In this document: piece by piece, positions 28,156-45,534 of the stretch
Numbering within the stretch: position 1 is the stretch's first letter
How the letters are laid out: each line of letters begins with the position of its first letter
Virus record (IMG/VR): IMGVR_UViG_3300020058_000046
DNA length: 45,534 nt
Direction: 5' to 3' (one strand)
From: a virus
Notes under the pieces: generated by a model
Told to the model about the DNA's origin: nothing
Database searches by the model: none
What the model saw: only the letters and a program-made list of their open reading frames with translations
Program-made: the position numbers and the translations under genes

Positions 28156-28230
28156 CAGGTGTCGACCGTGTCGTGTCGACGTGACTGCAAGGGTCGACAC
28201 CGGCAAGAAGGGTCGGCAGGGTGGTCGTCG
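28156..28230. repeat. ~72-bp intergenic repeat, copy 2
   Basis: Paralog of 26003..26074. Follows the stop of 28237..28665. Confidence 0.85.
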
Positions 28231-28236
28231 GTCGGT

Positions 28237-29232: not shown

Positions 29233-29285
29233 ACCCGTACTTGCATACCCGTGTATAAAAATGTGTCGTCTTGTACCGGCAGGTG
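29233..29285 (-). promoter_or_regulatory. Conserved promoter cassette, sub-type II
   Basis: Minus strand reads GGTACAAGACGACAC-ATTTTTATACAC-GGGTATGCAAGTACGGGT-ATG. Confidence 0.8.
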
Positions 29286-29286
29286 T

Positions 29287-29634
29287 CTATGCAGTTGCGA
29301 ACAGGATAATCGCAAGGTTCGACCCGGTGATTAGGGCACCGACTGTCGTTAGTGACGCCGGTATCGCCGTTCGATACTTCGTGTTCGCGGTGAAATAGAA
29401 GCCGACTGCGACTGCAAGAACCACCGCTTTCATGCCGACCATTAGCAAGGGTCCGAAGTCGACGATTGTACTGCCGACAGGGTGCGTTTCGGTCACACCG
29501 GGCAGGGATAACCCGACGACTGTTGTGATTACGTCGCCGACGACGAAGGTTAGTGCCGACGCAACCCAAAGCCACCCGTCGGTGTCTGTACTGCGTTCGT
29601 CTAACGCGTCGATTGGATTGGTCACAGTCTGCAC
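29287..29634 (-). CDS. Membrane protein (3-4 TM helices), 115 aa
   Basis: GTG start at 29634. Hydrophobic helices WLWVASALTFVVGDVITTVVGL, LLMVGMKAVVLAVAVGFYF and VGALITGSNLAIILFA. Confidence 0.6.
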   Translation of the reverse strand: MQTVTNPIDALDERSTDTDGWLWVASALTFVVGDVITTVVGLSLPGVTETHPVGSTIVDFGPLLMVGMKAVVLAVAVGFYFTANTKYRTAIPASLTTVGALITGSNLAIILFATA

Positions 29635-29767
29635 GTCGACCGTGTCGAAGATAAGGTCTTGTTGTTCGTCGCCGTTTCCCGTGACGTGTCACGTCGTTCG
29701 ACAGGTACAAACGCCGGCGTTTGTTCGACGATTCGCACGACGACACTTTGTATGCTTGCCGTATGTA

Positions 29768-29935
29768 TCACGTAATCGACCGTACGTCGTTGTCGGCTTC
29801 GCGCAACCGTCGGATACACCGGGCACACAACGGCTTTCGTTTCGGTCGTCGGTCGTCGTCGAAAAAGACTGTGTGAACGGTACTGCGTACGTCGTCGCGT
29901 TCGCACCGAACGCAGGGTCGTGATTCGGTGACCAT
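29768..29935 (-). CDS. Zinc-ribbon protein, 55 aa, below the ORF-track cutoff
   Basis: Hand translation gives MVTESRPCVRCERDDVRSTVHTVFFDDDRRPKRKPLCARCIRRLREADNDVRSIT*. It has CxxC...CxxC like the many other small Zn-ribbon genes here. Confidence 0.4.
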   Translation of the reverse strand: MVTESRPCVRCERDDVRSTVHTVFFDDDRRPKRKPLCARCIRRLREADNDVRSIT

Positions 29936-30033
29936 GACCGTGCCGTCGGTGTCTGCCGTCTTAGTGATTCGCCCGCGTCTGTCGGCGATTGTGTAAACCG
30001 TATGGTGCGATACAAAGTCGGCGTCGTCGGCAG

Positions 30034-33000
30034 TCAGTCGTCAGGGTCGACCGCGTCTTCAACCGTCACGGCTTCGATTCGCGTAATCGTGCGTGGTTCG
30101 TCGAAGTCGGCACCGTGCAGTTGCGGTCGGTATGCGTTCACCTGTCTGTCGTCGGTGTCGCCGGTGGTTCCGACGCGTGTTTCTGTCCATTCGACCGATA
30201 CCATGCAGTCGTCACGAAGCCATCGGAACGACGCCGTGTGTGCCGTCTTCGTTCCGTACTTGTGGTCGGTCGTCGACCGTGCGTGTCGTCTGAATTCGGC
30301 GGTGACCGTGCCTGCGACGGTTCGCAGGTGGTACGCGTCGCCGGATTCGACTGTGACCGTCGTGTCTTCGTTCACGGGTATGTCGACCGATACGTACGGC
30401 GTCGCGGCAGGGTCGACCACGGTGTCGAAGTCGCCGTCGTCGCCGTCGTCGCCGGCACCCTGCCCGCCGTCGGTTCGAACCGCGTGCAGGGTTGCGTCGA
30501 ACGATATGACTGCAAGCCACCCGTCGGTGTCGACGACGGACAGTCGACCGCCGGCATTCCATACTAACTGCTTGCCGTCGGCGTCGGCAAGTTTCACGAT
30601 GTTAGATAGTTCCGTGCCGTCGACCGTCTTGATGTCCGTGTCGGTCACCGTTCCGGCGATTCGACCTTTGCCGTCGTCGCCGGCAATCGGTTCGGCTTGC
30701 ACGACCACGTTGTCACCGCGTTCAAGGTCGTGTGCGTCGACTTCGGTGTCGTCGTCGGTATCCTGCCCGCCGTCGGTTCGAATCCTGCCGTCGCCGGCGT
30801 CACAGTCGTCGTCAGACGCGTCAGACGTGCCGTCAGGGTCGTCGTCGGTGTCGTCGGTGGTTTCGTCACCGTCGTCGACGCGGTCGACGTGCCGTGCAGA
30901 CACGACGATAGACGTGCCGTCGTACGCGACGTGCCCGTCACCGTCGCGGGTCGTGGTCGCAGTCAGTTGTGACCCGTCGACTTCGTCGACCGTTGCCTGC
31001 CCGCCGTCGACGAAGGTGCCCGAATGTTCGTCGGGCACGAACACGGTGTCGCCGGCGGTGATATCGTGGTCGTAATTGTACTTCGGGTCGTCGAAGTCGA
31101 CGCCGGCGTCGGTTAGTTCGTCGACGACCGCGTCTGACGACCGGATTTCAGGCACCGCGAAGTCGCGGTCGTCACCGGCTTCGAACGCGACGAATTCGAT
31201 ATCGCCGATGTACGTGTGATTCCCTGCCGACGACACCGAATGTATCTGTCCGGTCGTAAACTTGTCATTGCCGAACCGGAACGACCCGTCGTGGTCGTCG
31301 GTTTCGAAGACGATTCGGTGCAATTCGCCGTGTGCGTGATTGTACGTCACGTTCGTCACCGTGCCCGACTTCGTCAGGGTCGACGACGAACGGTTCGAAT
31401 CGTACGCGACGAACACCCTGTCGCCGATTGCGATATCGCCGGCGTCGAAGGGCACTTCTTGATACGTACCCAATGACTGCAAGCCGGAACCTGACGTGCC
31501 GGCGGTGACGTGACTGTCGTACGATTCGGCGGTTTCGTACGCGACTGCACCGGGTCGGTCGTCGTTGTAGACTTCGCCCGACGATTCCTGCACGTACCAC
31601 CTGTCGTCGTCGGTTGCGGTGAACCGAACGACACCGTCGGACACCTTCGTCACCGTGCCCGCGACGACGGTGTCGTCGTGATTGCAGTCTTTGCCCGTGA
31701 CGACGATACTGTCGCCGGCTTCGAACCTGCCGTCGAATGCGTCACAGTCGTCGTCAGACGCGTCAGACGCGTCGTCAGGGTCGTCGTCGGCGTCGTGCCC
31801 GCCGTCGGTCACCGGGTCGGCACGTTCGACAGTCAGGTGCCGGTCGTCTGATTCCTGCACGGCGTCGACACCGTCGAAGTGTCGTAACATTGCGTCGCCC
31901 GCGTCGACCGCCGTGTCGTCGCCGGTGAATGACATCGACAATTCGTGTAACTGAACGCCGACGACGCGTTCGTCGGCAGGGTCGACCGCGAAGTGTCCGT
32001 ACCGGGCACCACCTTTCACCGTTCGCAAGTCGACCGCGTCAGTCAGGGTCGACAATGCCGACTGCACTTCGTCGACGACGCCGTACTGTTCGGCGACGAT
32101 TTTGTCAGGTTCGAACCACCCGGCAAGACCCGTTCCGAAGTCGAACGTGGTTCGGTCACCGGAACGGTCGGCGACGAATCTGATTTTGTGCCGGTCGGCG
32201 TCATTCATCGGTTTGTCGACTGCGACTTCGAACGGGTCGGCGTCTTCGTCGCGGGCAGACAAGACACGACGGCACGTTTCCGTCGCCGTGTCTGCCACCG
32301 GAACGAAGACACCGGATTCGACGGATTCGACGAAGTCGTCGATAGTGTCTGCCGAACCGTTGTCGTACCGAACGACCGTGTCGAACGACGCGTCGTCGAC
32401 GGTTTCGACGGTGTAAACCTTGTCGTTGTGAACGCCGACGAACGTGTCGCCCGGCGACGGCATATCGGCGTTGTCGGCGTCGTCGGTGCCGTCGTCGACG
32501 ATGTCGATGTCGTCGACACGACCCAACTGCGTATTGTGTTTGCGTGACGGACCCGTCGACTTGTGCAGAAACACGGGCACGGTGTCGCCGTCGGCACGAA
32601 CGTACCGCGTCGAACCGTCGTAATCGGCGTCGGGTGCCGTCGCGTTCGTTTGCAGTCGGATTCGGGCAGGGGCACCGTCGTCGTCGGTCGTCGTCACGGC
32701 TTCGGTGACCCACACGTCGACCGTCGTGGTTTCGTCGTATTCGTCTTTGTAGTGACGCGACTTGTGTGCGTACGTCACTTCGATTCGGTCACCGGCTTCA
32801 AGACCCTGCACGATGTCGAACGCGTCGGCAAACGGCAGGTGGTCGGTCGTCGATTCGTCGGCGTCGTCGGCGGGCACAAGTTCGATTACGTCGGCGTCTT
32901 TCAGTCTGTACGACAGCGTGCCGTGTGGTTCCGGGTCGACCCATGTGGTGCGACCCGACGCCGAATCGTCTGTCGTCACGCGGTACACGTCTGTCGTGCC

Positions 33001-33195
33001 CGGTATCGGGTCGTGTCGCCGTCTGAACTTGTCTAACGTGTCGGCGTCTGTGTGCCACCGTTTGCCTTGCCGCAAGACGATTAGCGATTCGTCTTCGGGC
33101 AGGTTCGGCAGGATTGCCGCGACGGTTAGGGCAGTACGATACGACAGGGGCACACCGACGCGTAAGTTGTTCCAATCTGTCGGTTTCCGTGTCAT
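30034..33195 (-). CDS. Giant acidic protein with repeated small beta-barrel-like modules, 1053 aa, unknown function
   Basis: ATG at 33195 (ATGA overlap). At least 7 copies of [FL][ED]AGD.[IV].V...G.V..V. Three (R/V)TDGG(Q/H) Asp-rich linkers, two of which follow the SDASDDDCDA segment. No P-loop seen. Confidence 0.8.
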   Translation of the reverse strand: MTRKPTDWNNLRVGVPLSYRTALTVAAILPNLPEDESLIVLRQGKRWHTDADTLDKFRRRHDPIPGTTDVYRVTTDDSASGRTTWVDPEPHGTLSYRLKDADVIELVPADDADESTTDHLPFADAFDIVQGLEAGDRIEVTYAHKSRHYKDEYDETTTVDVWVTEAVTTTDDDGAPARIRLQTNATAPDADYDGSTRYVRADGDTVPVFLHKSTGPSRKHNTQLGRVDDIDIVDDGTDDADNADMPSPGDTFVGVHNDKVYTVETVDDASFDTVVRYDNGSADTIDDFVESVESGVFVPVADTATETCRRVLSARDEDADPFEVAVDKPMNDADRHKIRFVADRSGDRTTFDFGTGLAGWFEPDKIVAEQYGVVDEVQSALSTLTDAVDLRTVKGGARYGHFAVDPADERVVGVQLHELSMSFTGDDTAVDAGDAMLRHFDGVDAVQESDDRHLTVERADPVTDGGHDADDDPDDASDASDDDCDAFDGRFEAGDSIVVTGKDCNHDDTVVAGTVTKVSDGVVRFTATDDDRWYVQESSGEVYNDDRPGAVAYETAESYDSHVTAGTSGSGLQSLGTYQEVPFDAGDIAIGDRVFVAYDSNRSSSTLTKSGTVTNVTYNHAHGELHRIVFETDDHDGSFRFGNDKFTTGQIHSVSSAGNHTYIGDIEFVAFEAGDDRDFAVPEIRSSDAVVDELTDAGVDFDDPKYNYDHDITAGDTVFVPDEHSGTFVDGGQATVDEVDGSQLTATTTRDGDGHVAYDGTSIVVSARHVDRVDDGDETTDDTDDDPDGTSDASDDDCDAGDGRIRTDGGQDTDDDTEVDAHDLERGDNVVVQAEPIAGDDGKGRIAGTVTDTDIKTVDGTELSNIVKLADADGKQLVWNAGGRLSVVDTDGWLAVISFDATLHAVRTDGGQGAGDDGDDGDFDTVVDPAATPYVSVDIPVNEDTTVTVESGDAYHLRTVAGTVTAEFRRHARSTTDHKYGTKTAHTASFRWLRDDCMVSVEWTETRVGTTGDTDDRQVNAYRPQLHGADFDEPRTITRIEAVTVEDAVDPDD

Positions 33196-33497
33196 TGTTT
33201 GGGTCCGTGTTCAGTCAGGATATCGCCGATTCGGTCGAACAATGCGTCGCGGTCGTCGAAGTCGTCGCCGTCGACTGTCGCAACCCGTTCGTTGTCGATG
33301 TCGATTCGGTAATCGGGCACACCGAAGCCGTCAGGTTGCACGAAGACGTGTGCCGTCGACCCGTCGTGTATCCGGTCGTCGTCGCCGTCGTCGGCACCGT
33401 GTCGGTACGACAGTACGTCACCTTCGACCCAATTGACCGACCAGTCACCCGGTGCCGGGTATTCCGTTCCGTTCACAGTTTCGGTTTCGTGTTTCAT
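33192..33497 (-). CDS. Acidic protein, 101 aa, unknown function
   Basis: ATGA overlaps at both ends. Confidence 0.7.
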   Translation of the reverse strand: MKHETETVNGTEYPAPGDWSVNWVEGDVLSYRHGADDGDDDRIHDGSTAHVFVQPDGFGVPDYRIDIDNERVATVDGDDFDDRDALFDRIGDILTEHGPKQ

Positions 33498-33922
33498 TGT
33501 GTCACCCGTTGCATTACTGCAAGGATTGCGAACGCGTACAGGAAAGCAAACGCACCGCCGACGATTAAGCCGACGTGAACACCGCCGAACGACGCCGACA
33601 CCGCCGTCGTGCCGTACGCGACGGACAAGGCACCCACCGCAAGGGTGCCGTATAATCCTGCCGTGACGGTCGTTCGTGCCGGTGGCACGGCGTCGACAAT
33701 GCCGGTCGTTGTCGTCGATAGTGTCTTCGACATTGCCGTCAGTACGTCGTCGCCGTCGTCGTGCGTGTCAGTTTCGTCGACCGCGTCGCCGGCGTCGTCG
33801 TGCGTCGGTGCGTCAGGGTCGGCTTCGCCGGCGTTCGGTTGCACTTTCCGATTCACCGTTCGGTCGTCGTGGTCGTCGCCGTCACCGTCACCGTCGACAG
33901 TACCGCCGTCGGCGTCGGTCAT
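33494..33922 (-). CDS. Membrane protein with an acidic N-terminal region and two C-terminal TM helices, 142 aa
   Basis: ATG at 33922 overlaps the PCNA stop (ATGA). The ORF-track start at 33988 lies inside the PCNA gene. Confidence 0.65.
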   Translation of the reverse strand: MTDADGGTVDGDGDGDDHDDRTVNRKVQPNAGEADPDAPTHDDAGDAVDETDTHDDGDDVLTAMSKTLSTTTTGIVDAVPPARTTVTAGLYGTLAVGALSVAYGTTAVSASFGGVHVGLIVGGAFAFLYAFAILAVMQRVTQ

Positions 33923-34716
33923 GCTGATTTTGGTAATCGTGGTGCCTGCATTATCTTCGTGTCTATCGTGTCGTGTCGCGTTGTCCATACGTGGTATGGC
34001 ATATTGTCGCCGGTTACCATACGGAACGTGTCGGCGTCGATTATCGACACGAAGTCTTGCAGGTACGATAGTGACTGTTTTACCGTGACGCGTGTGTCCG
34101 GTGTGCCGTCGTCGTTGTACGCGAAGTCGTCGGCGTCGTGAATGTCGACCGATACTGAATCGGTGTCGCCGTCACCCGTCACCGTGAACGCCGAATCGTC
34201 GTCGAACGTGAATGTGCAATAGTTGGTCACCATGTCAGTCACGTCGACGGCACGGTCGAACTTGTCTGTCGGTACTGTGCAGTCGACGACGTACCCGTCT
34301 TTGTCTGCCGGCGGTACGTCGAACGGTGACCCGGTGACGGAATCGACGGTAAGACCCGCCATTCGGAATTCGATTTCTCCGGCTTCGATTACGAATTCGT
34401 AATTGTCCCAATCGTACCACAAGTGTACGGGTGCGTCGACCTTGCCGATTACGTCGCCGAACCGTTCGATATTCACACCCAACCGGAACGTGCCGGATAC
34501 GTCGTAATGGTCGAAGTCGTCGGCGTCGACCGTCTGTCGGACCATTGCGACGTTTGCCGCGTCGACACTTCTGTTTTCGAAACCGTCAGGTGTGAATTCG
34601 AAGACGGTTTCGAAGCGATTGATTGCCTGCAATCCGTTTGCGATACTGTCCCATACGTCGCAGTCGATTATCGTGTCGACGGTTACTTCGCCGTCGGAAC
34701 CTGTTTCGGGTGGCAT
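33919..34716 (-). CDS. pcn: PCNA sliding clamp, 265 aa
   Basis: ATG at 34716 (MPPETGSDGEVTVDTIID...). Length and two-domain pattern fit PCNA, and the C-terminal ...KIMQAPRL matches the PCNA-type ..APRI ending. The upstream part of the ORF-track ORF covers the tRNA. Confidence 0.75.
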   Translation of the reverse strand: MPPETGSDGEVTVDTIIDCDVWDSIANGLQAINRFETVFEFTPDGFENRSVDAANVAMVRQTVDADDFDHYDVSGTFRLGVNIERFGDVIGKVDAPVHLWYDWDNYEFVIEAGEIEFRMAGLTVDSVTGSPFDVPPADKDGYVVDCTVPTDKFDRAVDVTDMVTNYCTFTFDDDSAFTVTGDGDTDSVSVDIHDADDFAYNDDGTPDTRVTVKQSLSYLQDFVSIIDADTFRMVTGDNMPYHVWTTRHDTIDTKIMQAPRLPKSA

Positions 34717-34774
34717 GGTTGTTCGGTGGGTCCGAATTGCGGGTCGGATACCCGCCGACCGCGTGGTCGGAAAG

Positions 34775-34857
34775 TGGCACCTGCCGGATTCGAACCGGCG
34801 AAGTCCTGCGACGCACGGTCTTAAGCCGTGTGCAGTCGACCACTTTGCTAAGGTGCC
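34775..34857 (-). tRNA. tRNA-Leu (anticodon UAA), class II, 83 nt, no encoded CCA
   Basis: Acceptor GGCACCT/AGGTGCC. D stem GCA/TGC with GG in the loop. Anticodon stem CACGG/CCGTG with loop CTTAAGA. 14-nt variable arm. T arm GCCGG-TTCGAAT-CCGGC. Discriminator A. Confidence 0.85.
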
Positions 34858-34883
34858 CCAAACGAACCGGCGTGCGCCGGTGG

Positions 34884-35171
34884 TTAATGCGTGTCGGCGT
34901 CGTCTGTCGGCATATTCGGCACAGTCGCGTCGACCGACAGGGTTTCGTTCAGGATTCGTTTCACGCAGTCGTCGCACACCGTTGCTTTCGTGTTCGACGG
35001 TGCCGGCGAATTTTGGTTTTGTACGTATTCGCCGACAAAGTGCCCGATGTCGACTTCGTGCCCGTTGTCGTCGGCAGTCAGGAATCGGTCACACCCTGCA
35101 CCGTCGCACACGTCACCGCGTTCGATATCCGATTCGTCGATTACCGTACCGTCGGGTAATTTCAATGCCAT
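34884..35171 (-). CDS. Small Cys-containing protein, 95 aa
   Basis: ATG at 35171, 4 nt after the upstream stop. Contains CDGAGC...CDDC. Confidence 0.65.
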   Translation of the reverse strand: MALKLPDGTVIDESDIERGDVCDGAGCDRFLTADDNGHEVDIGHFVGEYVQNQNSPAPSNTKATVCDDCVKRILNETLSVDATVPNMPTDDADTH

Positions 35172-35175
35172 GTTG

Positions 35176-36339
35176 TCAGTTGTCGTCGGTGTCGTTTTGG
35201 TCGTGATACGCCGGCACGACGCCGGTTGCGTCGTCGACGATTGCGTCGATTAGGTCGTCTGTGTCCGGTGTCGCACCGGCGTCGACTTCGTCGCGGTTCG
35301 ACGCAATCACCTTCAAAGCGTTGTAATTCAGTACGCCGTCGACTGCCGCGTCGAACGACTGTCGACGAACCTGTCGGTCGATGTCGTCACGACCGAATTG
35401 CACGGTTAACCCTGACACGTCGCCGTGCCCGTCGTCGTCGGCGACTGTGACCGTCGCGGTGTCGAAGTCGGTGCCGTCGACCGCGTCGTCTGTGCCGGCG
35501 TCAGGGTCGTCAGACGCGTCGTCACCGCCGTCGCCGTCGTCGGTGGTATCGTCGCCGGTGTCGCCGTCGAAGTCAGACAAGGCTTTGTGTGCCTTTGCAG
35601 TCGCGTCGTCGTCTGATATCGGTTCACCACGGTCGACGATATCAAGCCGACCCGTCTTCGCAAAGTCGACTGCCCATTGCGGGCAGTCAGGGTCGTCGGG
35701 CGTTGCCCGCGTTCCGGTCGTGAACACGCACCGCGTCAGGTAACTGTACCCGATAATCGCCGGTCGGTTTTCACCTGCACCGTGTGGGTGAATTATCCAT
35801 ACACGGGTACGCAACGGTTCGATTACCGGCGGTTGTTGTTTCGACGACACGGGAATTCGAAGGTTCAAGCCGCGTTCACGGCATTCGTCGATGTAATCTT
35901 CGGGCGTTTCCCAATTGCTCTTACCCACGGACATCAATAGGTCGATTGCCCGCGTCGACGTGATATCGCCGAAGTGTGACCCGTCGAAGCCGAACCGCGA
36001 CAGTCGGTCGATATGGTTGGGAATGTCGTCAGACGGTGTCGTCGTACCACCGTCGGCAATGTAGTGCAGACTGAACGCGTTGCCCGGAAACGGTCGGTAT
36101 CCGGGTATAATCGCACCTTTGCCGGTGTATTCCTTGTATTCGACCGGGTCGTCTAATTCGACGAATCGTGGTATGTCGCCGTCAGGTGCCGAAAGTGCAG
36201 ACACGTCACACCTGACGTAAGCCGCGTTCGGTTTCAAGTGCCCGCAACCGCGTTCTTTGTTGTCGATTGTTTCGCGTTCGTCGTCGGGTATGCCTTTTTC
36301 TAACTGTTCGTCGACGGCTTGCCGCAAGGGGTTGGTCAT
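35176..36339 (-). CDS. Unknown replication-module protein with a C-terminal HeH/SAP-like motif, 387 aa
   Basis: ATG at 36339 behind a TTTTATAC box. N-terminal ERGCGHLKPNAAY motif. Asp-rich linker. C-terminal YNALKVIASNRDEVDAGATPDTDDLIDAIV. Confidence 0.75.
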   Translation of the reverse strand: MTNPLRQAVDEQLEKGIPDDERETIDNKERGCGHLKPNAAYVRCDVSALSAPDGDIPRFVELDDPVEYKEYTGKGAIIPGYRPFPGNAFSLHYIADGGTTTPSDDIPNHIDRLSRFGFDGSHFGDITSTRAIDLLMSVGKSNWETPEDYIDECRERGLNLRIPVSSKQQPPVIEPLRTRVWIIHPHGAGENRPAIIGYSYLTRCVFTTGTRATPDDPDCPQWAVDFAKTGRLDIVDRGEPISDDDATAKAHKALSDFDGDTGDDTTDDGDGGDDASDDPDAGTDDAVDGTDFDTATVTVADDDGHGDVSGLTVQFGRDDIDRQVRRQSFDAAVDGVLNYNALKVIASNRDEVDAGATPDTDDLIDAIVDDATGVVPAYHDQNDTDDN

Positions 36340-36392
36340 GGGTCGGTCACCACGGTCGACGATTGTTTCGGCGGGTATAAAACCGTGTCGGT
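36340..36392 (-). promoter_or_regulatory. Promoter of the PCNA operon
   Basis: Minus strand has CCGACACGG-TTTTATAC, then about 36 nt, then ATG, with GGTGACCGACCC before the ATG. Confidence 0.6.
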
Positions 36393-36465
36393 GATTGGGT
36401 GAATGGTGGGCCGGACATTGCCACCGGCAGGTGTGACCCGCGTGTGTCGGTCGGTGTCTGTCGAT

Positions 36466-36607
36466 GTCTGCACAGTCGGCGTCACAGTCGTCGTCAGAAA
36501 CGGCACAGTCGGTCGTGACGCCGTCGCAGTCGTACGTGCCGTATGGGTCGAATCAGGAAAAGAAACGTCGCGTACCGTACGCCGTCAGTCGTGACGACCC
36601 TGCCGCG
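36466..36607. repeat. Phased-repeat boundary element, copy 4
   Basis: Begins at the TGA of 36608..38305. Near-identical to copy 2. Confidence 0.9.
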
Positions 36608-38305
36608 TCAGTCGTCGGTGTACTTGTCGTGCAGGGTCGTGAATGACCCGTTTCGGGAATCACGGCACCCACACGGGCACCGCAAGGTTAGTTCGCGGTC
36701 GGTCGTCGTGTTGTATCGACTGATTTTGTAGGTGTGAACGCGAAGGGTCGGTCGAAGTCGGTCACCACACCACGGGCACACCGCAAGTTCGTGCAAGACT
36801 TCGGTGCCCTTGTCGGTGATATCCCACCGGGCATTAGGGTCGTCGAAGTCGGCGTCGTCATTGCCGTCGACGCGTTCAATCAAGCCGACTTCGCGTGCCT
36901 TGCGAATGACCGTTCGAAAGTGTGCGTCGCCGTGTGCGAAGCCGTCGGGTCGACGGAAACCCGTGCCCGGTGACCCATGACCCTGCACCTTGCGAACACC
37001 TTGCTTACCCGTCGGGCACGGTGCGATATCGTCAGGGTCGACATCGTCGTCGTACGTGTTCACGGTGAACATACCGCCGTCGCCCGACGCGTCTTCGCGT
37101 GCCGACGCAATGAATTCCTGCCACCACGCGACATCGGTAAGCAACGACCGAACCTTCGTCGGCGTCACCGACGCGTATTCGTCGAACACGTCGGCGACAT
37201 CGTCGGGCACGTCGGCGTCGTCGACGGACCACACGCGGTCGTCTTTGCAGTCGATACACACCGGGTCGTCGTGTGCCGGGTGGTCGTGTTCGGCACCGGC
37301 GTCGTGCGTGTCACCGCAACGGGCACAGTCGAACGTGTCGATGTACCTGTCGGCGGTCTTTTTGCCGTCGTCGTTGTACTGTGCCTTGTTGTAAGCCGCG
37401 TCGCGGATTCGTTCGACGTTTCGGTTCACGGACAGTCGGCGAAACGTCTGTGCGACTTCGGTTCGGTTGTTGTCCGACGCGTCGACAAGGTCGGAATACG
37501 AAGCCGCGTCGAATTCGTCGTCGAAGTCGTGTGGTATCGTCGCACGATACCACAAGGGTCGTTCGTAATCAGGGTCGTCGTATGACGGCAAGCCGTCGTC
37601 GACATCGTCGCCCGCCGTGCCTGCACGCAATGCGATAGTTGCGTCGAAGGGGCAGTCGCCGTCGTCGCCGTCGCAGGTGTATCGCAGTCGAATGATTCCG
37701 TCGTCGTCGACACGGGTGCGTTCGCGGTTCCGGTGACCGTCGTGAACCGGGCACGTCGGCGGTGCGTGTGACAACGATTCACCGTCGGCGTCGTCGGAAT
37801 ACTGTTCGACGACCTTGTGAACGACGGTGCCGTCTTCGACGACCGTTCGAATCGACCCGTCGTGCCGAATCTTGATGTCGTACTGTTCCGGTTCGGCGTC
37901 GCGCAAGAAGTGTTCCGTGTCGGCGTCGGAGTGTGCGTCGACTTTGGCTTCGACCGGGTCGGTGTCACCGCCGTCGGTCACCGCGTCGGCGACTGCCGTT
38001 TCGAACGCGTCGACGGTGTCGCCGAATCCGCGTTCGGCGTCGGTCGGTTCGCGGTCGTCGGCGTTCAGGTGGTCGTCGGCGTCGGCGGTGTCGTCGCGGT
38101 CGACGCCGTACGGATTGCGCGACTTTAGTTCGGCGATTGCGACTTCGGCGTTCGCGGTAAGGACAGGTTCGGCGTATTCGCCGTCGGGCAGGTTCGCGGC
38201 AGTCTGTGCGACGCGGTCGATGTACTGAATCAGTTGGTCGGTCGACATCGTCGTCGGGTCGATGTCGGCGGGCGATTCGTCGTCGGCGTCGGTGTGTCGC
38301 ACCAT
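36608..38305 (-). CDS. MVRH-cassette gene: large Zn-finger / winged-helix-like protein, 565 aa, candidate replication or regulatory factor
   Basis: ATG at 38305 (an in-frame ATG also sits 6 nt upstream). Cys clusters CARCG..CIDC and CPWCG..CPCGC. FRTVIRKAREVGLIERV resembles a wHTH recognition helix. Confidence 0.75.
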   Translation of the reverse strand: MVRHTDADDESPADIDPTTMSTDQLIQYIDRVAQTAANLPDGEYAEPVLTANAEVAIAELKSRNPYGVDRDDTADADDHLNADDREPTDAERGFGDTVDAFETAVADAVTDGGDTDPVEAKVDAHSDADTEHFLRDAEPEQYDIKIRHDGSIRTVVEDGTVVHKVVEQYSDDADGESLSHAPPTCPVHDGHRNRERTRVDDDGIIRLRYTCDGDDGDCPFDATIALRAGTAGDDVDDGLPSYDDPDYERPLWYRATIPHDFDDEFDAASYSDLVDASDNNRTEVAQTFRRLSVNRNVERIRDAAYNKAQYNDDGKKTADRYIDTFDCARCGDTHDAGAEHDHPAHDDPVCIDCKDDRVWSVDDADVPDDVADVFDEYASVTPTKVRSLLTDVAWWQEFIASAREDASGDGGMFTVNTYDDDVDPDDIAPCPTGKQGVRKVQGHGSPGTGFRRPDGFAHGDAHFRTVIRKAREVGLIERVDGNDDADFDDPNARWDITDKGTEVLHELAVCPWCGDRLRPTLRVHTYKISRYNTTTDRELTLRCPCGCRDSRNGSFTTLHDKYTDD

Positions 38306-38355
38306 ACCCATACTTGCGTACCCGTGTATAAAAATGTGTCGGCTTGTACCGGGCA
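38306..38355 (-). promoter_or_regulatory. Conserved promoter cassette, sub-type II
   Basis: Minus strand reads GGTACAAGCCGACAC-ATTTTTATACAC-GGGTACGCAAGTATGGGT-ATG. Confidence 0.8.
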
Positions 38356-38365
38356 GTCGGTGAAT

Positions 38366-38405
38366 GCCGACACGTTTTTACCTGCCGTCGGCGTACCCTG
38401 CACCG
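38366..38405 (+). promoter_or_regulatory. Divergent promoter of the plus-strand TFB-like operon
   Basis: Plus strand has GCCGACACG-TTTTTAC (38375-38380), then 26 nt, then ATG(38406). Confidence 0.6.
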
Positions 38406-39407
38406 ATGTCAGGTGCAAAAACCGACCCGCCGACCCTTCGCCGTCTTGCCGATTCCGTCGGCTTCGACGACGGTGATATCGACTTCGCCGAACAGTTAGA
38501 CGACCAACTGCCGAACGACGGTGGTTTCGCCGACCGTGACGCCGGTATCGTGTACGCCGTCGCGCGTATCAATAACGTGCCGATTCGACCCGGCGAAGTC
38601 GCCGACGCGTCGCAGTACGACGATGTCGACGCCGATACTGTCGTGAACGACACGCGACGTATCGCCGACACTATGCCCTTCGACTTACACGTCGACGACC
38701 CGTCGGCGTTCGTAAAACGATTCGTCGACGACGTATCCGATGTCTGCCGGGTGCCCGACGGTTTCCGGCAGACTGCCCTTCGTCTGTGTGCCGACGCAAC
38801 GAACGCCGGCTTGCAGTCAGGTAAGTCGCGTTCCGGTTTTGCCGCGTCGGTCGTGTACGCGGCTTCGGTCGTCACCGACGCCGATATCGGGCAATACGAA
38901 GTCGCCGACATCGTCGACGTGTCACCCGTAACAATCCGAAACCAGTACCGACCGATTATCGACTGCACCGACGAACACGATTGGACAATGCACGACGCCG
39001 ACGACTTGCCCGAACTTGTCGACGCAATCGCCGACGACATCGACCGCGTACCTGACGACGTGCGTGACGACGCGGTCGGCGTCGCCGAATCAGTCGTCGC
39101 CGACGAACCGGAATTCGTCACGTCGACGAAGGTGACCGGAACCGCCGGCGGTGTCTTCTATGTCGTTGCTGAACGACACCGTTTCGACGTTTCCATGCAA
39201 GAAGTCGCCGATACCGCCGGCGTCAGTAAGCATACAGTCGTTGCCCGTGTTCACGACGTGCGTGATTACTGCCGTCGCGTTCAGTACCGAACGATGAATT
39301 ACAACCGTCTGAAAGAACTTGCCGCGTCGCACGACCTTGATGTCGGCACGACGCCGGCGAAGTCAGACATCGTCGACGCGTTAGTTCGCAACAAAATCGA
39401 CGCATAA
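38406..39407 (+). CDS. TFB/TFIIB-like protein (two cyclin repeats, no Zn-ribbon or B-reader) with an extra HTH and a C-terminal HeH/SAP-like motif, 333 aa
   Basis: LQSGKSRSGFAASVVYAASVVTDADIGQYEVADIVDVSPVTIRNQYRPI matches the TFB second-repeat signature (sGrsP..lAAAalY.As......tQ.evA....VtevTIRNrY.e). The first repeat has RDAGIVYAVARINNVPIRPGEVA. There are no Cys pairs at the N-terminus. An ATG at 38364 is an alternative start. Confidence 0.7.
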   Translation: MSGAKTDPPTLRRLADSVGFDDGDIDFAEQLDDQLPNDGGFADRDAGIVYAVARINNVPIRPGEVADASQYDDVDADTVVNDTRRIADTMPFDLHVDDPSAFVKRFVDDVSDVCRVPDGFRQTALRLCADATNAGLQSGKSRSGFAASVVYAASVVTDADIGQYEVADIVDVSPVTIRNQYRPIIDCTDEHDWTMHDADDLPELVDAIADDIDRVPDDVRDDAVGVAESVVADEPEFVTSTKVTGTAGGVFYVVAERHRFDVSMQEVADTAGVSKHTVVARVHDVRDYCRRVQYRTMNYNRLKELAASHDLDVGTTPAKSDIVDALVRNKIDA

Positions 39408-39409
39408 CC

Positions 39410-39595
39410 ATGCCTGAATACCTGAAATTCCGTGAACCGTGCGACGCCGACGACTGTGACCACACAGTCACGACATGGTTTCCGAAAAACGTGTCGCCGG
39501 TGCGTGTTCGGTGTGCCGAATGTCGACGTATAAACCGTATCGAATCGTCGCCGGTCGAATCGGCAGTCGTCGCAAACAAGGGTACGGGCACATGA
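39410..39595 (+). CDS. Zinc-ribbon protein, 61 aa
   Basis: Contains CDADDCDH...x21...CAECR. ATG lies 2 nt after the upstream TAA. Confidence 0.6.
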   Translation: MPEYLKFREPCDADDCDHTVTTWFPKNVSPVRVRCAECRRINRIESSPVESAVVANKGTGT

Positions 39596-40203
39596 CGGTC
39601 GACGAATCCTGCCCGGTGTGTGACGATACCGGGTGCGTCGTCTGTTGGTCGGTCGACGATGTCACTATCGGCACGACTGACGACTGCACGTACGACAATA
39701 TCGCCGGCTTCGATGTCGACGTGACTGACGAACGGGTGCGAAGTCGTGACGGCTTCGATATCGGCGACTGCGAAGTGTCGTTCAATGCTGAATTGACCGT
39801 GCCGCAATCCGTCGTTCGAAAGACGAACCGGCGGGCAGTCGATACCCTGCAATCGAAAGCAACCCACGAATTCGACTGTGACGGATTCGACCGGGAAACC
39901 TTCGACGACGCCGTGCATTCGATTGAATCGGCAGGGTACGATACTGCACGGTGGGTTATGCCGTCGTCGGTCGTCGAATCCCTGCGTTCGTGGTACGACG
40001 ATAGGTTCCGTGTCAGTCAGTTCGACGGTGCGTTCGTCGACGACCGTGTGTCATGGCAGTACCCAATCGTCGAAGTATCTGACGATGTCGAAGATACCGA
40101 CGCGTTGCTTGTTGCCACCGACGCCGTGTCGAATGGCCCGTCGCCGTTCACCGACCGAATTATCGTCGTCGACCCTGACGGTGTCGCGGTGATTCACACA
40201 TGA
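39592..40203 (+). CDS. Protein with an N-terminal CxxCxxxGCxxC knuckle, 203 aa, unknown function
   Basis: ATG at 39592 in an ATGA overlap (MTVDESCPVCDDTGCVVCW...). The ORF-track start at 39475 overlaps the upstream gene. Confidence 0.65.
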   Translation: MTVDESCPVCDDTGCVVCWSVDDVTIGTTDDCTYDNIAGFDVDVTDERVRSRDGFDIGDCEVSFNAELTVPQSVVRKTNRRAVDTLQSKATHEFDCDGFDRETFDDAVHSIESAGYDTARWVMPSSVVESLRSWYDDRFRVSQFDGAFVDDRVSWQYPIVEVSDDVEDTDALLVATDAVSNGPSPFTDRIIVVDPDGVAVIHT

Positions 40204-40625
40204 CCGGGTCGATATTGGGGCACTTCGAAGACTGGTTCAAAAGCCGCGACACGCGGATTCGACACCGATACGAAGACGATGTCGGGCAATGGGCATTCGT
40301 CGTTCAGGTGCGTGGTGACGAACTTGTCTGTGCCGCAAGGTCGTCGTACCGTGACGACGACGCGTCGCAGGTGTCGATTATGAAACGCGTCGCAGGTAGG
40401 GCACAAGTCCGTGACGGCTTCGTCTGTCTTCGCGTTCGTGACGATATCCTTGTCTTCGACCCGGTCGCAATCCTTGCGGCAGGGTCGAATGACGAAGTCT
40501 TCGAAGACGACCGCAAGAAACGCGGTGAACAATGGGTCGTCGTGCCTGTCGATGTCGCCGTTCCGTTCGACAGGTGGTTCGACGGTGTCGACCCTGCCAC
40601 CTTCGGCGATATTACTGATTACTGA
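40200..40625 (+). CDS. Protein of unknown function, 141 aa
   Basis: ATGA overlap at 40200. Its 3' end overlaps the convergent gene 40612..41373 by 14 nt. Confidence 0.65.
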   Translation: MTGSILGHFEDWFKSRDTRIRHRYEDDVGQWAFVVQVRGDELVCAARSSYRDDDASQVSIMKRVAGRAQVRDGFVCLRVRDDILVFDPVAILAAGSNDEVFEDDRKKRGEQWVVVPVDVAVPFDRWFDGVDPATFGDITDY

Positions 40626-41373
40626 ACGCACCGCCGTCGCGTGCCTTGCGATACGTCGTCTGTTTCACCCTGTCGCCGATGTCGGCGACTTCGGCGTCGA
40701 CCGCGTCTTCGGTTCGACCGATTACGATTTTCCATGCCGACCCGTCACCCGTATCTGCCGGCTTCGCAACGACTGCGTTGTACTTGTCGACGACGCGTTC
40801 AATCAGGGATTCGCGGGCACGGTCACCGAACGACCACCTGTCGTCTATTATGTTCGTCAGTACGGCACGCGGTACTGCGACCGCGTCGTCGGTGGTTCGC
40901 AAGAGGTATTCGGCGATGTATTCGGCTTTGTCGCGTTTCGGTGCCTTTGCGTGTGGTACGTCGTCAGGGTCGAAGTCGGAACCGCCGTCGTCGGTACTGT
41001 CGTCGGCGTCGTCTGTGCCGGCGTCACAGTCGCCGACAGACGCGTCAGACGTGCCGTCAGGGTCGACCCGTGCAGTCTGCCCGGTGTGTGTGTGCGACGG
41101 TCGTGAAACGGTGCGTGTGGTGTCTGTACCGCCGTCACAATCGACGACGACCGCGTCTTCAAGCCGCGACAATTGTGCCTGAATCGTTGCGACATCGTTT
41201 TCTAACCGGGCGATTTCATCGGTCGGTCGGTCGGCGTCGATGTACTGCCGTATTGCGTTTTCAAGTTCGTCACGCAAGACACCGCGTCGTTGCCCGTGCC
41301 TGTCTTCGACGTACCGAACGAACCTGTCGTACAAGTCGGCGTCTATCGGCGTCGGTTGTTTGGTGTCACCCAT
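40612..41373 (-). CDS. Ribbon-helix-helix (CopG/Arc-like) regulator with a long acidic C-terminal extension, 253 aa
   Basis: ATG at 41373 (MGDTKQPTPIDADLYDRFVRYVEDRHGQRRGVLRDELENAIRQYI, a beta-alpha-alpha pattern). A TATTTACA box lies 27 nt upstream. Contains one in-frame copy of the DPDGTSDAS..DCDAG segment. Confidence 0.6.
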   Translation of the reverse strand: MGDTKQPTPIDADLYDRFVRYVEDRHGQRRGVLRDELENAIRQYIDADRPTDEIARLENDVATIQAQLSRLEDAVVVDCDGGTDTTRTVSRPSHTHTGQTARVDPDGTSDASVGDCDAGTDDADDSTDDGGSDFDPDDVPHAKAPKRDKAEYIAEYLLRTTDDAVAVPRAVLTNIIDDRWSFGDRARESLIERVVDKYNAVVAKPADTGDGSAWKIVIGRTEDAVDAEVADIGDRVKQTTYRKARDGGAFSNQ

Positions 41374-41415
41374 TGCAGATTTCTGTTTTGTACCCTGTTG
41401 TAAATACGTGCCGGT
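41374..41415 (-). promoter_or_regulatory. Promoter of the RHH regulator gene
   Basis: Minus strand has GGCACG-TATTTACA, then about 27 nt, then ATG(41373). Confidence 0.55.
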
Positions 41416-41463
41416 TGTTTCGATTAAGATTGTACTAACTGTGCGTCTTGTGTGCAAGCCGAC

Positions 41464-41505
41464 ACTACTTACTACTTAGTTTGTACTGTAAAAGTAGTAA
41501 GTAGT
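41464..41505. promoter_or_regulatory. AT-rich perfect inverted repeat of tandem heptads: (ACTACTT)x2 - 14 nt - (AAGTAGT)x2
   Basis: Read directly from actacttactactt agtttgtactgtaa aagtagtaagtagt. It is the most AT-rich spot of the divergent intergenic region. Confidence 0.9.
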
Positions 41506-41508
41506 AAC

Positions 41509-41554
41509 AGGTGGGTCGGTTCACCGACCCACCTAATCGGGTCACCGACCCGAT
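41509..41554. promoter_or_regulatory. Two adjacent GC-rich hairpins/palindromes sharing TCACCGACCC
   Basis: AGGTGGGTCGG-ttca-CCGACCCACCT (11-bp stem) and ATCGGGTC-acc-GACCCGAT (8-bp stem). Confidence 0.85.
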
Positions 41555-41672
41555 GTCTTGCGATTCGACGAATCCGTCGAATCTGCACCGTACCGTCTGA
41601 CACCGTCTGCACACACACACCGCAATCGGCACCGACACGCGTATCGGTCACCCGTTCAATGTTCACGATACC

Positions 41673-42146
41673 ATGTCTTCGACAAAGGGTGACAGGTGGG
41701 AAAGAAATTATCGAAACGCGTTGTGTGCAACTGATTCCGAAGCCGACGCCGACGACATCGACCGCGTCGGTGTCGATAGTGTCGACGCCGTCGAACCGTT
41801 CGTCGCCGTTCGTATGCCGTCGTCAGGGTCGGCGACACGCGAAGACTTGCCCGACTTGCACGTCTGGTATGTTTCCGGGTCGGTCGTTCGGGAATTCGCC
41901 GTCGAAGTGAAAGCCGGTCGTGACAGGGTTAGATTGGATAATTCCGAAGTACCTGCACTTCGTCGGTATGCTGATTCGACCGCGTCTGAACCAATCGTGT
42001 TCGTACATATTGATTACGTCGGCGACTTCGTCGTGCCCGTCGACGACCTACACAGTACCGATAAAGGGTACACGTTCACCGAAAGTCGTGACGCCGGCGA
42101 CGCCGTCACATTCGCCGAATGGGTGCAGTCTGTGCCGACTGTTTAA
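41673..42146 (+). CDS. hjc: Holliday junction resolvase, archaeal Hjc-like, 157 aa
   Basis: KGDRWERNYRNAL...AVRMPSSGSATREDLPDLHV...FAVEVKAG...VRLDNSEVPAL fits the Hjc pattern G...E......L...G..v.R...SG.....PD..a......EvK. Confidence 0.7.
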   Translation: MSSTKGDRWERNYRNALCATDSEADADDIDRVGVDSVDAVEPFVAVRMPSSGSATREDLPDLHVWYVSGSVVREFAVEVKAGRDRVRLDNSEVPALRRYADSTASEPIVFVHIDYVGDFVVPVDDLHSTDKGYTFTESRDAGDAVTFAEWVQSVPTV

Positions 42147-44607: not shown

Positions 44608-45531
44608 TTATTGCACCGTGACTTGTGCCTGCGTGACGAAACCACGGTCGTCGACTGTGATTGCGTGACTGTTGGCAAGCCACACAAGCCGGTTCGAATC
44701 GTCGTGAACACCCACCTGTACGATGTCGTACGGTGACCCGCCGGATACCGCCGAATCCGGCACAGACGCCGTCACGACGACAGACGTGCCGTCATGTGCC
44801 ACCGTCACCGACTGCCGCAAGACTTCATTCGGCAGTTGGTCGTAATCCTGTATCGTATCCTGCGTGTCGGAATACACGAATGCACGGAACGGGTCGGCAG
44901 GATTGGTCGACACGACCGCGTCGGCAATCTGTTCGAACGCGTACGGTGCCACCCATTGCGACGTACCACGGGCACGACCCGATATCGTGACTTCGGTTTC
45001 GAATTTTACGTCGTCGTTCGACGGGTCGACGCCGGTTGCGTCGAAGACTTCGCGTGTAAGCAAGGCACCGCCGTCGTCGATAATGCCGACTTCGTACCCG
45101 TTGTCGATGTACGACGGTGCCGCAATCGGGTCGGATTCGACGCGTACGTTCTTACCCGTCGCCGATACCGTCGCCGACACGTCGCCGGTCTTGTTGCTTA
45201 GTGTCGTGTCTGTCACGTCGGCGTCGTCGCCGGTGCCGTCACCGTATGCAATCTTGTCGGGCACCGACCCGTCGCCCGCCGTCGAAGCCGCGACAAGTTC
45301 ACGACCGCGTCGCGTCGATACCACCGACGACCGTGTCTGCCCGACTTCGGTGAACGGGTCGGTCGTGCCCGACGGTCGTGTGAATAGTGTCGTGTCGACA
45401 TCTAACTGCACGTACTGCCGACCATAGAACCGGGCACGTTCTTGTTGTGACGATACTGCGACGAACCGACCTTGCGTTCTATCTAAGTCCTTTCGCGTTT
45501 CGCCGACGATTGATTCAAGACTTCGGACCAT
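44608..45531 (-). CDS. Tail-tip / baseplate protein, 307 aa
   Basis: The ATG at 45531 lies in the terminal overlap. On the circle it follows 100..1560 with a 3-nt gap. Confidence 0.6.
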   Translation of the reverse strand: MVRSLESIVGETRKDLDRTQGRFVAVSSQQERARFYGRQYVQLDVDTTLFTRPSGTTDPFTEVGQTRSSVVSTRRGRELVAASTAGDGSVPDKIAYGDGTGDDADVTDTTLSNKTGDVSATVSATGKNVRVESDPIAAPSYIDNGYEVGIIDDGGALLTREVFDATGVDPSNDDVKFETEVTISGRARGTSQWVAPYAFEQIADAVVSTNPADPFRAFVYSDTQDTIQDYDQLPNEVLRQSVTVAHDGTSVVVTASVPDSAVSGGSPYDIVQVGVHDDSNRLVWLANSHAITVDDRGFVTQAQVTVQ

Positions 45532-45534
45532 TGC
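45436..45534. repeat. Second copy of the terminal 99-bp overlap
   Basis: Identical to 1-99. Confidence 0.95.

Follow-up and report, generated by a model that had tools for sequence, protein, structure and literature searches.

The 299-bp gap (41,374-41,672) between two diverging genes of the viral record IMGVR_UViG_3300020058_000046, which was analysed over its full length of 45,534 nucleotides (the window), holds a real repeat-dense non-coding module whose repeats go far beyond chance. This module, lying between a minus-strand gene for a ribbon-helix-helix (RHH)-like protein and hjc, the plus-strand gene of an archaeal Holliday-junction resolvase, is bounded at about 190 bp and made of conserved parts: an AT-rich palindrome (H1), two GC-rich hairpins (H2 and H3), usually a fourth hairpin (H4), short direct repeats and an alternating purine-pyrimidine (RY) tract. 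It is a structure-selected non-coding cassette that matches no library description. An earlier note, made from the DNA letters of this window, had already pointed to a repeat-dense control region beside a gene of DNA-binding type, and this claim holds, the conserved non-coding region going with the gene in at least 17 related loci. As for its role, the region is tentatively read here as the virus's central transcription control and boundary cassette, a reading that falls somewhat short of an even chance.

Hairpins kept by structure rather than by sequence

H2 and H3 pair perfectly in all nine genomes compared, namely the window, seven uncultured viral contigs and the cultured Halorubrum virus Hardycor1: the 172 pairs comprise 171 Watson-Crick pairs and a single G·T, without any A·C. 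At the same time, 34-53% of the stem positions differ between any two genomes, the two stems being represented by 8 and 9 distinct arm sequences, and the stems of H2 and H3 differ from each other within one genome. In a covariance-model alignment, 12 of the 18 modelled pairs have changed on both sides, with a covariation score of 0.518 compared to 0.162 in shuffles (0 of 500 reaching 0.518) and to at most 0.157 in slid-partner controls; RNAalifold on a plain alignment is concordant (13 of 19 pairs). Perfect pairing despite such sequence change indicates that structure, and not sequence, is selected. In addition, the relatives L001 and L003 have identical H2 stems with loops, GAA and TTC, that are exact reverse complements of each other, a difference which one inversion explains and three point mutations do not. 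The near-absence of wobble pairs and this flipped loop point to a constraint on both strands or at the DNA level, which argues both against an RNA made from one strand and against two different sequence-specific duplex operators. The loops of H2 and H3, of 1-4 nt, are not conserved, TTC or GAA occurring in 7 of 18; as a lead, d(C-GAA-G) is a very stable DNA mini-hairpin. On average, the 14 nt located 5' of H2 contain 40% A against a background of 18%, and the 14 nt located 3' of H3 contain 37% T against 24%.

The block also stands out within its own genome. Perfect inverted repeats with a stem of at least 9 bp and a loop of at most 20 nt number 31 in the window, and 4 of these 31 fall within this 120-bp block, where the longest one of the genome (14 bp) adjoins one of its two 12-bp repeats. 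Perfect inverted-repeat seeds of 12 nt are observed five times against a mean of 0.20 in dinucleotide shuffles, and those of 14 nt once against 0.02. Folding of 41436-41630 gives z-scores of -9.35 (plus strand) and -7.26 (minus strand) relative to shuffles, the predicted fold being a closed multi-branch structure whose (GT)n/(CA)n outer stem encloses the four hairpins. Equivalent (GT)n/(CA)n pairing is found in L003 and L004 (12 bp) and partially in L001 and L011. Another candidate closing stem, pairing the 5' flank with TTGCGATT, appeared in part of the genomes only and was dropped for its inconsistency. The second-lowest-GC 40-bp window of the genome, which lies within H1, and its second-lowest-GC 100-bp window are both located in the gap. 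An independent metagenome assembly has the gap letter for letter (100% identity), which rules out an assembly artefact and, by the same token, leaves the comparison without micro-evolutionary information. An independent contig of the same virus (L155, JGI 3300042583, 4,084 bp) stops inside the gap, 48 nt from the RHH-like gene on its upstream side, and assemblies may break at the hairpin-rich block.

The relatives were collected as syntenic loci from IMG/VR and JGI metagenomes by scans with Hjc and with alignments of both flanking proteins; an IMG/VR protein-pattern scan with the RHH-like protein alone gave no match, so that alignment-based scans were needed. The complete module occurs in the same order in the seven contigs (L001-L004, L011, L015 and L019): the RHH-like gene and its promoter, H1, H2, H3, T(T)GCGATT, usually a fourth hairpin, variable direct repeats, (CA)n and, except in L019, hjc. 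The motif TTGCGATT reads TGCGATT in six of eight genomes and TGCGGTT or TGCCGTT in the other two. In Hardycor1, a looser version with an ACT palindrome, GCGATCGC and two GC hairpins lies upstream of HrrHc1_265; the authors of the Hardycor1 paper discuss neither this gap nor an origin. The resolvase gene is the downstream neighbour in seven of the eight module-bearing genomes and is not adjacent in Hardycor1 and L019. The tandem heptads described in the earlier note are not shared by the relatives, the H1 arms consisting instead of (ACTT)3, (ACT)n or mixtures in these seven contigs, L024 and Hardycor1.

When the upstream gaps of more distant homologues (L022-L031, L017 and L024) are compared, H2 and H3 are absent, and the order becomes microrepeats such as (CTAA)4 or (CTAT)4, then TTTAACGAAACGTT, then (ACT)n or (CAA)n and then an alternating purine-pyrimidine tract. 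Of 18 gaps preceding the RHH-like gene, 15 contain an RY tract of 12 nt or more, compared to only eight such tracts in the whole 45.5-kb window. In L008, L010 and L025, a second, different RHH-like gene (MSKDGLVRLPRI...) lies directly upstream of hjc on the same strand; ACT-rich microrepeats precede it in L008 and L025, with a hairpin too in L008, so that the module exists in rearranged forms. Further searches brought no new member: nucleotide searches of phage collections with the region and its 3-kb surroundings returned nothing relevant, the DNA pattern AAGGGG-N-CCCCTT-N-TGCGATT matched more than 120 IMG/VR loci that are nearly all bacterial-phage terminators, and no provirus with the RHH-like gene appeared in a scan of genome-collection contigs. 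With the covariance model R1, the eight known copies alone were retrieved: no second copy emerged in this genome, and Hardycor1 was missed.

The individual repeats listed in the earlier note were all recovered at the positions given. Its inverted heptads at 41464-41505 are present, with fully complementary arms around a 14-nt spacer, and its twin hairpins are correctly placed and share TCACCGACCC, a 15-nt direct repeat found at 41521 and 41542 (21 bp apart), although the first stem measures 12 bp rather than the 11 bp announced. The palindrome GATTCGACGAATC exists at 41562-41574 and is better described as part of H4; by itself it is not unusual, 9-bp stems being common in this genome. The two copies of ACCGTCTG with a 10-bp period, running into the CA repeat (CACACACACA at 41610), were also found where they had been reported. 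Taken alone, this last element is weak, but its 10-bp-phased CCGTCTG repeat is found again at 23609-23643 (3.5 copies), 22330 and 16561. The first of these places belongs to a repeat region at 23609-23669, upstream of the gene 23150-23542 and near the detrended GC-skew minimum, with perfect tandem repeats of CCGTCTGTGC (3.5 copies) and GTCGCGTTC (2.8 copies); CCGTCTGTGC has both CCGTCTG and the 10-bp phasing in common with the ACCGTCTG repeats. Finally, CACCG forms a one-stranded array of six at 41522-41630, with none on the opposite strand, and six in 142 bp is the genome maximum.

Table 1. Features of the intergenic module and of its neighbours, with positions in the window (a cell is empty where no strand applies)
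Feature	Position	Strand	Description and basis
GT-rich outer arm	41439..41457		Complementary to the (CA)n region 41608-41628; closes the module into a multi-branch fold (folding, both strands)
H1	41464..41505		AT-rich perfect palindrome, 14-bp arms (ACTACTT x2), 14-nt AT-rich core; arms ACTACTTACTACTT (41464-41477) and AAGTAGTAAGTAGT (41492-41505), 100% complementary
H2	41509..41534		GC-rich hairpin/palindrome, 12-bp perfect stem, 2-nt loop; inverted-repeat search, compensatory change
H3	41536..41554		GC-rich hairpin/palindrome, 8-bp perfect stem, 3-nt loop; inverted repeat, compensatory change
TTGCGATT	41558..41565	+	Sequence-conserved motif directly 3' of H3; alignments
H4	41562..41583		9-bp-stem hairpin GATTCGACG-aatc-CGTCGAATC; in relatives, hairpin at the same position with a different sequence
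Short direct repeats	41586..41609	+	CACCG at 41586 and 41601; ACCGTCTG at 41592 and 41602, 10-bp period; repeat search
RY tract	41608..41620		Alternating purine-pyrimidine tract TGCACACACACAC, Z-DNA-prone; most widely conserved non-coding feature of the family
Third promoter-like site GTGCAAGCCGACAC	41452..41465	+	13/14 match to the BRE-side element GTACAAGCCGACAC of the TFB/g36608 divergent promoter
RHH-like gene promoter (predicted)	41400..41414	-	TATA-like TATTTAC 41400-41406 (plus strand GTAAATA); BRE-like CCGGCACG 41407-41414
hjc promoter (predicted)	41629..41647	+	26-44 nt upstream of the ATG; BRE-like GCACCGACACG, then weak TATA-position sequence CGTATCGG; conserved in L001, L002 and L011
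TFB homologue	38364-39407	+	Pfam TFIIB 2.2e-15
RHH-like gene, 253 amino acids	40612..41373	-	Open reading frame; ATG at 41373
hjc (archaeal Holliday-junction resolvase)	41673..42146	+	ATG 41673; Pfam Hjc 2.4e-6 (above gathering cutoff), PHROG 6591

Promoters and a possible transcription boundary

Nearly all genes of the window lie on the minus strand, from 38,311 down via base 1 and on to 42,143. This pattern is broken by an island composed of a homologue of the transcription factor TFB and two plus-strand open reading frames, or ORFs (38,364-40,625), the RHH-like gene, the gap and hjc. Both start codons that the earlier note had placed at the borders of the gap, ATG 41373 on the minus strand and ATG 41673 on the plus strand, are correct. 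At its other end, hjc overlaps the last late gene (DUF5798-like) tail-to-tail by 4 nt (42143-42146), as it also does in L001-L004, and the RHH-like gene overlaps the plus-strand ORF141 tail-to-tail by 14 nt (40612-40625). These overlaps leave no room for terminators, the transcripts of both neighbouring units thereby having no non-coding space before the gap. In L001, the TFB homologue is located downstream of the RHH-like gene on the same strand. In L019, Hardycor1 and seven distant relatives, the upstream gene runs in the same direction as the RHH-like gene, and the module separates it from the promoter of the latter. Read along the sense strand of the RHH-like gene, the module is thus always interposed between the incoming transcription unit and the promoter of that gene.

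Promoters were called by comparing upstream regions within the genome. A recurrent viral pattern emerges, in which (C)CGACAC is directly followed by a TATA sequence (TTTTTATAC, TTAATAC or TTTTATAC) about 25-45 nt before the start codon; it precedes g4604, g35176, g36608/TFB, g29017 and g18519, as well as hjc and the RHH-like gene. This pattern agrees with the haloarchaeal promoter consensus, made of a TFB recognition element (BRE) CGAAA and a TATA element TTWT (PMC4983044). The RHH-like gene carries such a BRE/TATA pair, with an equivalent TATA at about -30 from the start in L001-L004, and this distance from the ATG predicts a leaderless mRNA. On the other side, the genome has just two copies of the 11-mer GCACCGACACG, one placed 30 nt ahead of the g4604 start (5079-5069) and one 33 nt ahead of hjc, and a one-mismatch copy lies upstream of g35176. 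Both flanking genes thus possess proximal promoters and probably give leaderless mRNAs; as each has its own promoter about 30 nt upstream, the central ~210 bp represents an additional element. The TATA sequence of hjc, CGTATCGG, is poor, so that this promoter may need help. Elsewhere in the genome, near-identical promoter copies, ACAAG(A/C)CGACACATTTTTATACACGGGTA(C/T)GCAAGT, are found at 29233-29280 and 38312-38363, the latter serving both the TFB gene and g36608, which diverge over a 52-bp gap with one shared TATA.

The left arm of H1 is directly adjoined by the third promoter-like site, GTGCAAGCCGACAC, so that H1 occupies the place of a TATA box. In Hardycor1, the loop of H1 reads CGAAAC-GTTATAC, a canonical BRE and TATA directed away from the RHH-like gene, and TATA-like cores are also found in H1 of L024, L025 and L001. 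From its letters, H1 therefore looks like a promoter core flanked by microrepeat arms, although its core in the window is devoid of TTWT.

Were the region a transcription control and boundary cassette, it would sit at the end of the ~40-kb minus-strand late unit and at the start of the regulatory island formed by the RHH-like gene, the viral TFB and hjc. H1 would supply the promoter-like AT-rich core, its ACT(T) arms being the most plausible sites for the adjacent two-domain protein, which, once bound there, would shut the core in both directions. H2, H3 and H4 would act through their structure, in either orientation, blocking or insulating transcription whichever side it came from. As the late transcript has no room to terminate before hjc, it would have to read antisense through hjc into the gap. 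Upstream of the weak hjc promoter, the (CA)n tract and the two types of repeat, CACCG and CCGTCTG, would serve it as regulatory or topological elements. In this context, the 10-bp CCGTCTG repeats at 23609-23643 also lie upstream of another gene's promoter, and a 1996 study of the bop promoter reportedly dealt with non-B DNA at an alternating purine-pyrimidine (RY) box.

The hairpins themselves are of the kind used in intrinsic termination, H2, H3 and H4 all having perfect, GC-rich stems of 12, 8 and 9 bp, respectively, and an A-rich tract on one side of the H2/H3 pair with a T-rich tract on the other is a two-way terminator layout. Of the 3' ends mapped in Haloferax volcanii, 503 follow a hairpin, and in a reporter a single hairpin was enough for 59% termination in vivo (PMC7237163). 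The two situations have in common GC-rich hairpins, a haloarchaeal setting and a location just downstream of transcription units (PMC7237163), whereas the module described here lacks oligo-T and consists of two to four tandem perfect palindromes with compensatory change, for which a function is predicted.

Several observations nevertheless weigh against a boundary cassette. No run of four or more T follows either hairpin on either strand, the longest one after H3 being 1-3 nt in eight genomes with tails of 37-40% T, so that oligo-T, the strongest archaeal termination signal, is absent; a scan with a generic terminator consensus likewise flags nothing in 41464-41621. The distant relatives that keep the microrepeats and the RY tract without H2 and H3 indicate that the hairpins are not essential to the family-wide function. 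Moreover, the microrepeat unit changes between relatives with almost identical N-terminal strands of the RHH-like protein, whose binding is only predicted. Finally, the perfect palindromes, the AT-rich core and the Z-DNA-prone tract fit a replication origin equally well.

Alternative roles in replication, RNA production and protein binding

A replication origin, the other role suggested in the earlier note, is a possible reading, if a rather doubtful one. H1 would serve for unwinding, and H2-H4 together with the (GT)n/(CA)n arms would either extrude, as hairpins or cruciforms, or form folds in the displaced strand. Supercoils would be taken up by the RY tract, and the RHH-like/winged-helix protein would bind the origin and recruit the host replisome, possibly helped by transcription from the H1 core. 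Stems that are Watson-Crick on both strands (171/172, no A·C) together with the inverted loop suggest DNA-level selection or homogenisation, and the low-GC windows, the one-stranded CACCG array and the co-occurrence of the element with a conserved two-domain gene of DNA-binding type in at least 17 loci go in the same direction. Neither a replicase nor an initiator (Orc1/Cdc6, MCM, polymerase, primase, helicase, Rep or other) was found by Pfam and PHROGs among the ~50 ORFs, and tblastn of the 1053- and 567-residue orphan proteins against phages gave no match, so that no hidden replicase was identified; Hardycor1 has no replicase either and is said to rely on host enzymes (PMC7911831). Against an origin, no orc1/cdc6, Rep or other initiator gene accompanies the element, and no origin recognition box (ORB) was found in it with the consensus used here: GTTCCANTGGAAAC gave nine genome matches with up to three mismatches against 12 expected by chance, none of them in 41374-41672. 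Where iteron-type origins have at least three to four repeats of ~17-22 bp, the direct repeats here are two copies of only 8-15 nt and do not make an iteron array, the AT-rich element being present and a recognisable initiator gene lacking. A rolling-circle origin with a HUH Rep fits no better, with no Rep found and loops of 1-4 nt that are not conserved. In addition, the intergenic region at 23.6 kb has better tandem iterons, near the skew minimum, and the homologue in the virus HRTV-28 matches the N-terminal part only and has no long upstream gap. As in the earlier note, no initiator was recognised (here by Pfam and PHROGs among the ~50 ORFs), and other repeat-rich intergenic regions do exist.

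An extremum of the detrended cumulative GC skew falls at 42,436, ~0.9 kb from the element, which could be taken in favour of an origin, but it is a maximum and, by bacterial and archaeal convention, a terminus. Its two turning points, this maximum and the minimum at 24,986, coincide with borders of the structural and early gene blocks, and the GC skew at third codon positions (GC3) is 0.33 on the plus strand in the early block (25159-38311) compared to 0.10-0.17 in the structural genes, all on the same gene strand, which accounts for the V-shaped cumulative skew. Because such skew can stem from codon usage or expression rather than from fork direction, it neither supports nor refutes an origin here and was rejected as a locator. 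The origin candidate of the earlier note thereby stands without an ORB, without an initiator among the ~50 ORFs and with an uninformative skew.

Known origins offer partial likenesses. Haloarchaeal chromosomal origins have an AT-rich region between inverted ORBs bearing a G-string, to which oriC1 of Haloarcula hispanica adds a G-rich inverted-repeat enhancer (PMC3936714). Like such origins, the module has an AT-rich core with inverted-repeat flanks, nearby G-rich inverted repeats (AAGGGG...CCCCTT in relatives) and a long intergenic location beside the gene of a DNA-binding protein (PMC3936714), but it has no ORB and no orc1/cdc6, and its G-rich arms are adjacent, as a hairpin with a 1-4-nt loop, instead of flanking the AT-rich region. 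The AT-centred perfect palindrome between divergent early genes and their promoters, overlapping promoter-regulatory DNA, is also the layout of oriS/oriL of herpes simplex virus 1 and of the simian virus 40 origin. The virus studied here has neither a UL9 or T-antigen homologue nor repeated initiator boxes beside the palindrome, and the likeness remains an analogy. That the cassette and its dedicated protein form a previously undescribed type of archaeal tailed-virus origin, assembled from DNA hairpins or cruciforms conserved in structure, an unwinding core with microsatellite arms and a Z-DNA-prone tract and serving viruses without a replicase by recruiting the host replisome without ORB or Orc1/Cdc6, is slightly more doubtful still than an origin as such. 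None of the readings considered here excludes the others, as viral origins often overlap promoter-regulatory DNA.

Roles that depend on the adjacent protein have to be seen in the light of what is known of it. It belongs to a family of 113 cluster representatives at 50% identity that bears no annotation. Pfam assigns it no family at E<=0.01, none of 15 homologues (0/15) matches an RHH family at E<=1, and hhalign against CopG gives a probability of 0.2%. Profile searches of the PDB retrieve nothing for the N-terminus, the best overall match (E = 0.15) being a Phd/YefM-type antitoxin on the C-terminal part, and Foldseek finds no significant match, its best (E = 0.16) being winged-helix proteins on the C-terminal domain. 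An AlphaFold2 model built on a 76-sequence alignment (mean predicted local distance difference test, or pLDDT, 76.9; a single-sequence model was unusable, with pLDDT 48) shows residues 1-11 extended and helices 12-26 and 32-48 at pLDDT 93-96, followed by a coiled coil (long helix), an acidic disordered linker and a C-terminal alpha/beta winged-helix-like domain. This beta-alpha-alpha-like N-terminus fits the strand-helix-helix topology of RHH proteins, although a monomer model cannot show the strand pairing of the dimer. The identity of RHH regulator given in the earlier note is therefore plausible from the predicted topology, whereas Pfam, PDB and fold comparisons give no significant match. 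The type of microrepeat partly tracks the N-terminal strand, IGVRIDEDLW going with (ACTT)n and PTPID or PTTID with mixed ACT/ACTT; yet L027, L029 and L031 have the strand ERIQPGGRVD in common and carry CTAT or CTAA repeats, which makes base-specific reading of the microrepeats doubtful.

With such a neighbour, all the repeats could be duplex operators bound sequence-specifically by the RHH repressor for autoregulation, as the earlier note had proposed. Gene and region are always adjacent, the predicted N-terminus has RHH-like topology at pLDDT above 90, RHH proteins bind arrays of short repeats, and the microrepeats partly follow the N-terminal strand. This autoregulatory proposal did not hold up well and is now improbable: the promoter of the RHH-like gene lies 50-90 bp from the repeats, which are thus not at the usual position of an autoregulatory operator, the hairpins vary in sequence while keeping their pairing and differ from each other within a genome, one and the same ERIQPGGRVD strand faces different repeats, and Pfam gives no RHH match. 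The immI region of phage P22 (Arc, Mnt and sar RNA) is comparable as a compact control region between diverging genes beside an RHH-type regulator gene, with palindromic operators overlapping promoters and a short structured RNA. Unlike it, the present locus has a 253-residue protein with a coiled coil and a winged-helix-like domain and without an RHH profile match, three to four structure-conserved GC hairpins, a Z-DNA-prone tract and archaeal BRE/TATA promoters, binding and RNA being only putative. A structured non-coding RNA, either of ~60-70 nt running from the H1 core through H2 and H3 to a U-rich tail UCUUGCGAUU or as a sense/antisense hairpin pair such as ColE1 RNA I/II and P22 sar, is unlikely, though less so than operators. 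Strong, conserved and covarying hairpins, a folding energy very low relative to shuffles on both strands, a promoter-like core ~25 nt upstream of H2 and a conserved T-rich motif after H3 would suit it, and a pair made from both strands would explain the missing wobble pairs. An RNA made from one strand only is harder to reconcile with one G·U in 172 pairs (at an assumed G·U rate of ~5% for functional RNAs, the analyst's own figure, a hand-calculated binomial P(<=1) of ~0.002) and with the GAA/TTC loop inversion between L001 and L003, and the H1 core of the window has no TTWT. Rfam at gathering scores returned tRNA-Leu only for the whole window, and for 41300-41750 merely generic hairpin-like microRNA-type matches of 12-24 bits, far below thresholds of 42-100.

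Least probable of all, and by a wide measure improbable in itself, is another DNA-level site: a partition centromere of the parC/ParR kind, a packaging (pac) site or a cruciform substrate for Hjc. The repeat arms that flank the promoter-like core ahead of the RHH-like gene resemble parC/ParR of plasmid R1, where repeat arrays border a promoter core situated just before an RHH gene, and in pMV158 GC-rich hairpins and direct repeats (the double-strand origin) immediately precede the RHH gene copG; however, no partition NTPase or Rep gene follows the RHH-like gene here, and the arms are microrepeats of 3, 4 or 7 nt rather than 11-bp iterons. The palindromes could extrude as four-way junctions, with hjc downstream in seven of eight module-bearing genomes, but the gene is not adjacent in Hardycor1 and L019. 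No NTPase of the ParA, ParM or TubZ type and no integrase were found by Pfam and PHROGs among the ~50 ORFs, and the terminase gene terL is 20 kb away (20568-22079). A phage attachment site (attP) was accordingly rejected for want of an integrase, and a pac/terS assignment, suggested by the small-terminase-like layout of the RHH-like protein, was dropped because its gene lies 20 kb from terL.

Genome setting and significance

The window carries a 99-bp direct terminal repeat (bases 1-99 being identical to 45,436-45,534), which points to a circularly closed assembly and thus to a probably complete genome of 45,435 bp. It encodes a portal protein, a large terminase, a tail-tube protein, a possible protease/capsid fusion, a tRNA-Leu and acidic proteins. 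By protein similarity, its closest cultured relatives are the Halorubrum viruses Hardycor1 and, at greater distance, HRTV-28, and the source is therefore judged to be an uncultured tailed virus of a salt-lake haloarchaeon.

Some other features of this genome deserve mention. The portal ORF is unusually long (982 amino acids, 12867-15815), its portal domain being confined to residues 93-414, and a 579-residue ORF (10821-12560), in which Pfam recognises nothing but an XkdF-type protease domain (residues 183-295), is the candidate protease/capsid fusion. A 120-bp tandem repeat at 2671-3013 (2.4-2.9 copies, 75-82% matches) lies within a 666-residue ORF (2025-4025) for what is possibly a tail or fibre protein. 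An intergenic repeat of 60-130 bp containing CTGTCTGCACAGTCGGCGTCACAGTCG...GAAACGGCACAGTCGGTCGTG is present in three copies (17810-17884, 27095-27237 and 36465-36607) and recalls related intergenic repeats reported for Hardycor1. Finally, the second of the genome's two 12-bp perfect inverted repeats, TTCGAAACCGTC ... GACGGTTTCGAA with a 15-nt loop (34576-34614), is located ~160 bp from the tRNA-Leu(TAA) gene (34774-34857, minus strand).

The module bears on how haloarchaeal tailed viruses without replication genes start replication and pass from early to late transcription, a group for which no cis-acting control element is known to have been defined. The viral TFB could redirect the host RNA polymerase to CGACAC-type viral promoters. 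Besides, perfect Watson-Crick compensation and the flipped loop suggest that DNA hairpins form in vivo at near-saturating intracellular salt, which is of biophysical interest in its own right. Together, the module, its partner protein family of 113 representatives and the cultured relative Hardycor1 make the question experimentally accessible.

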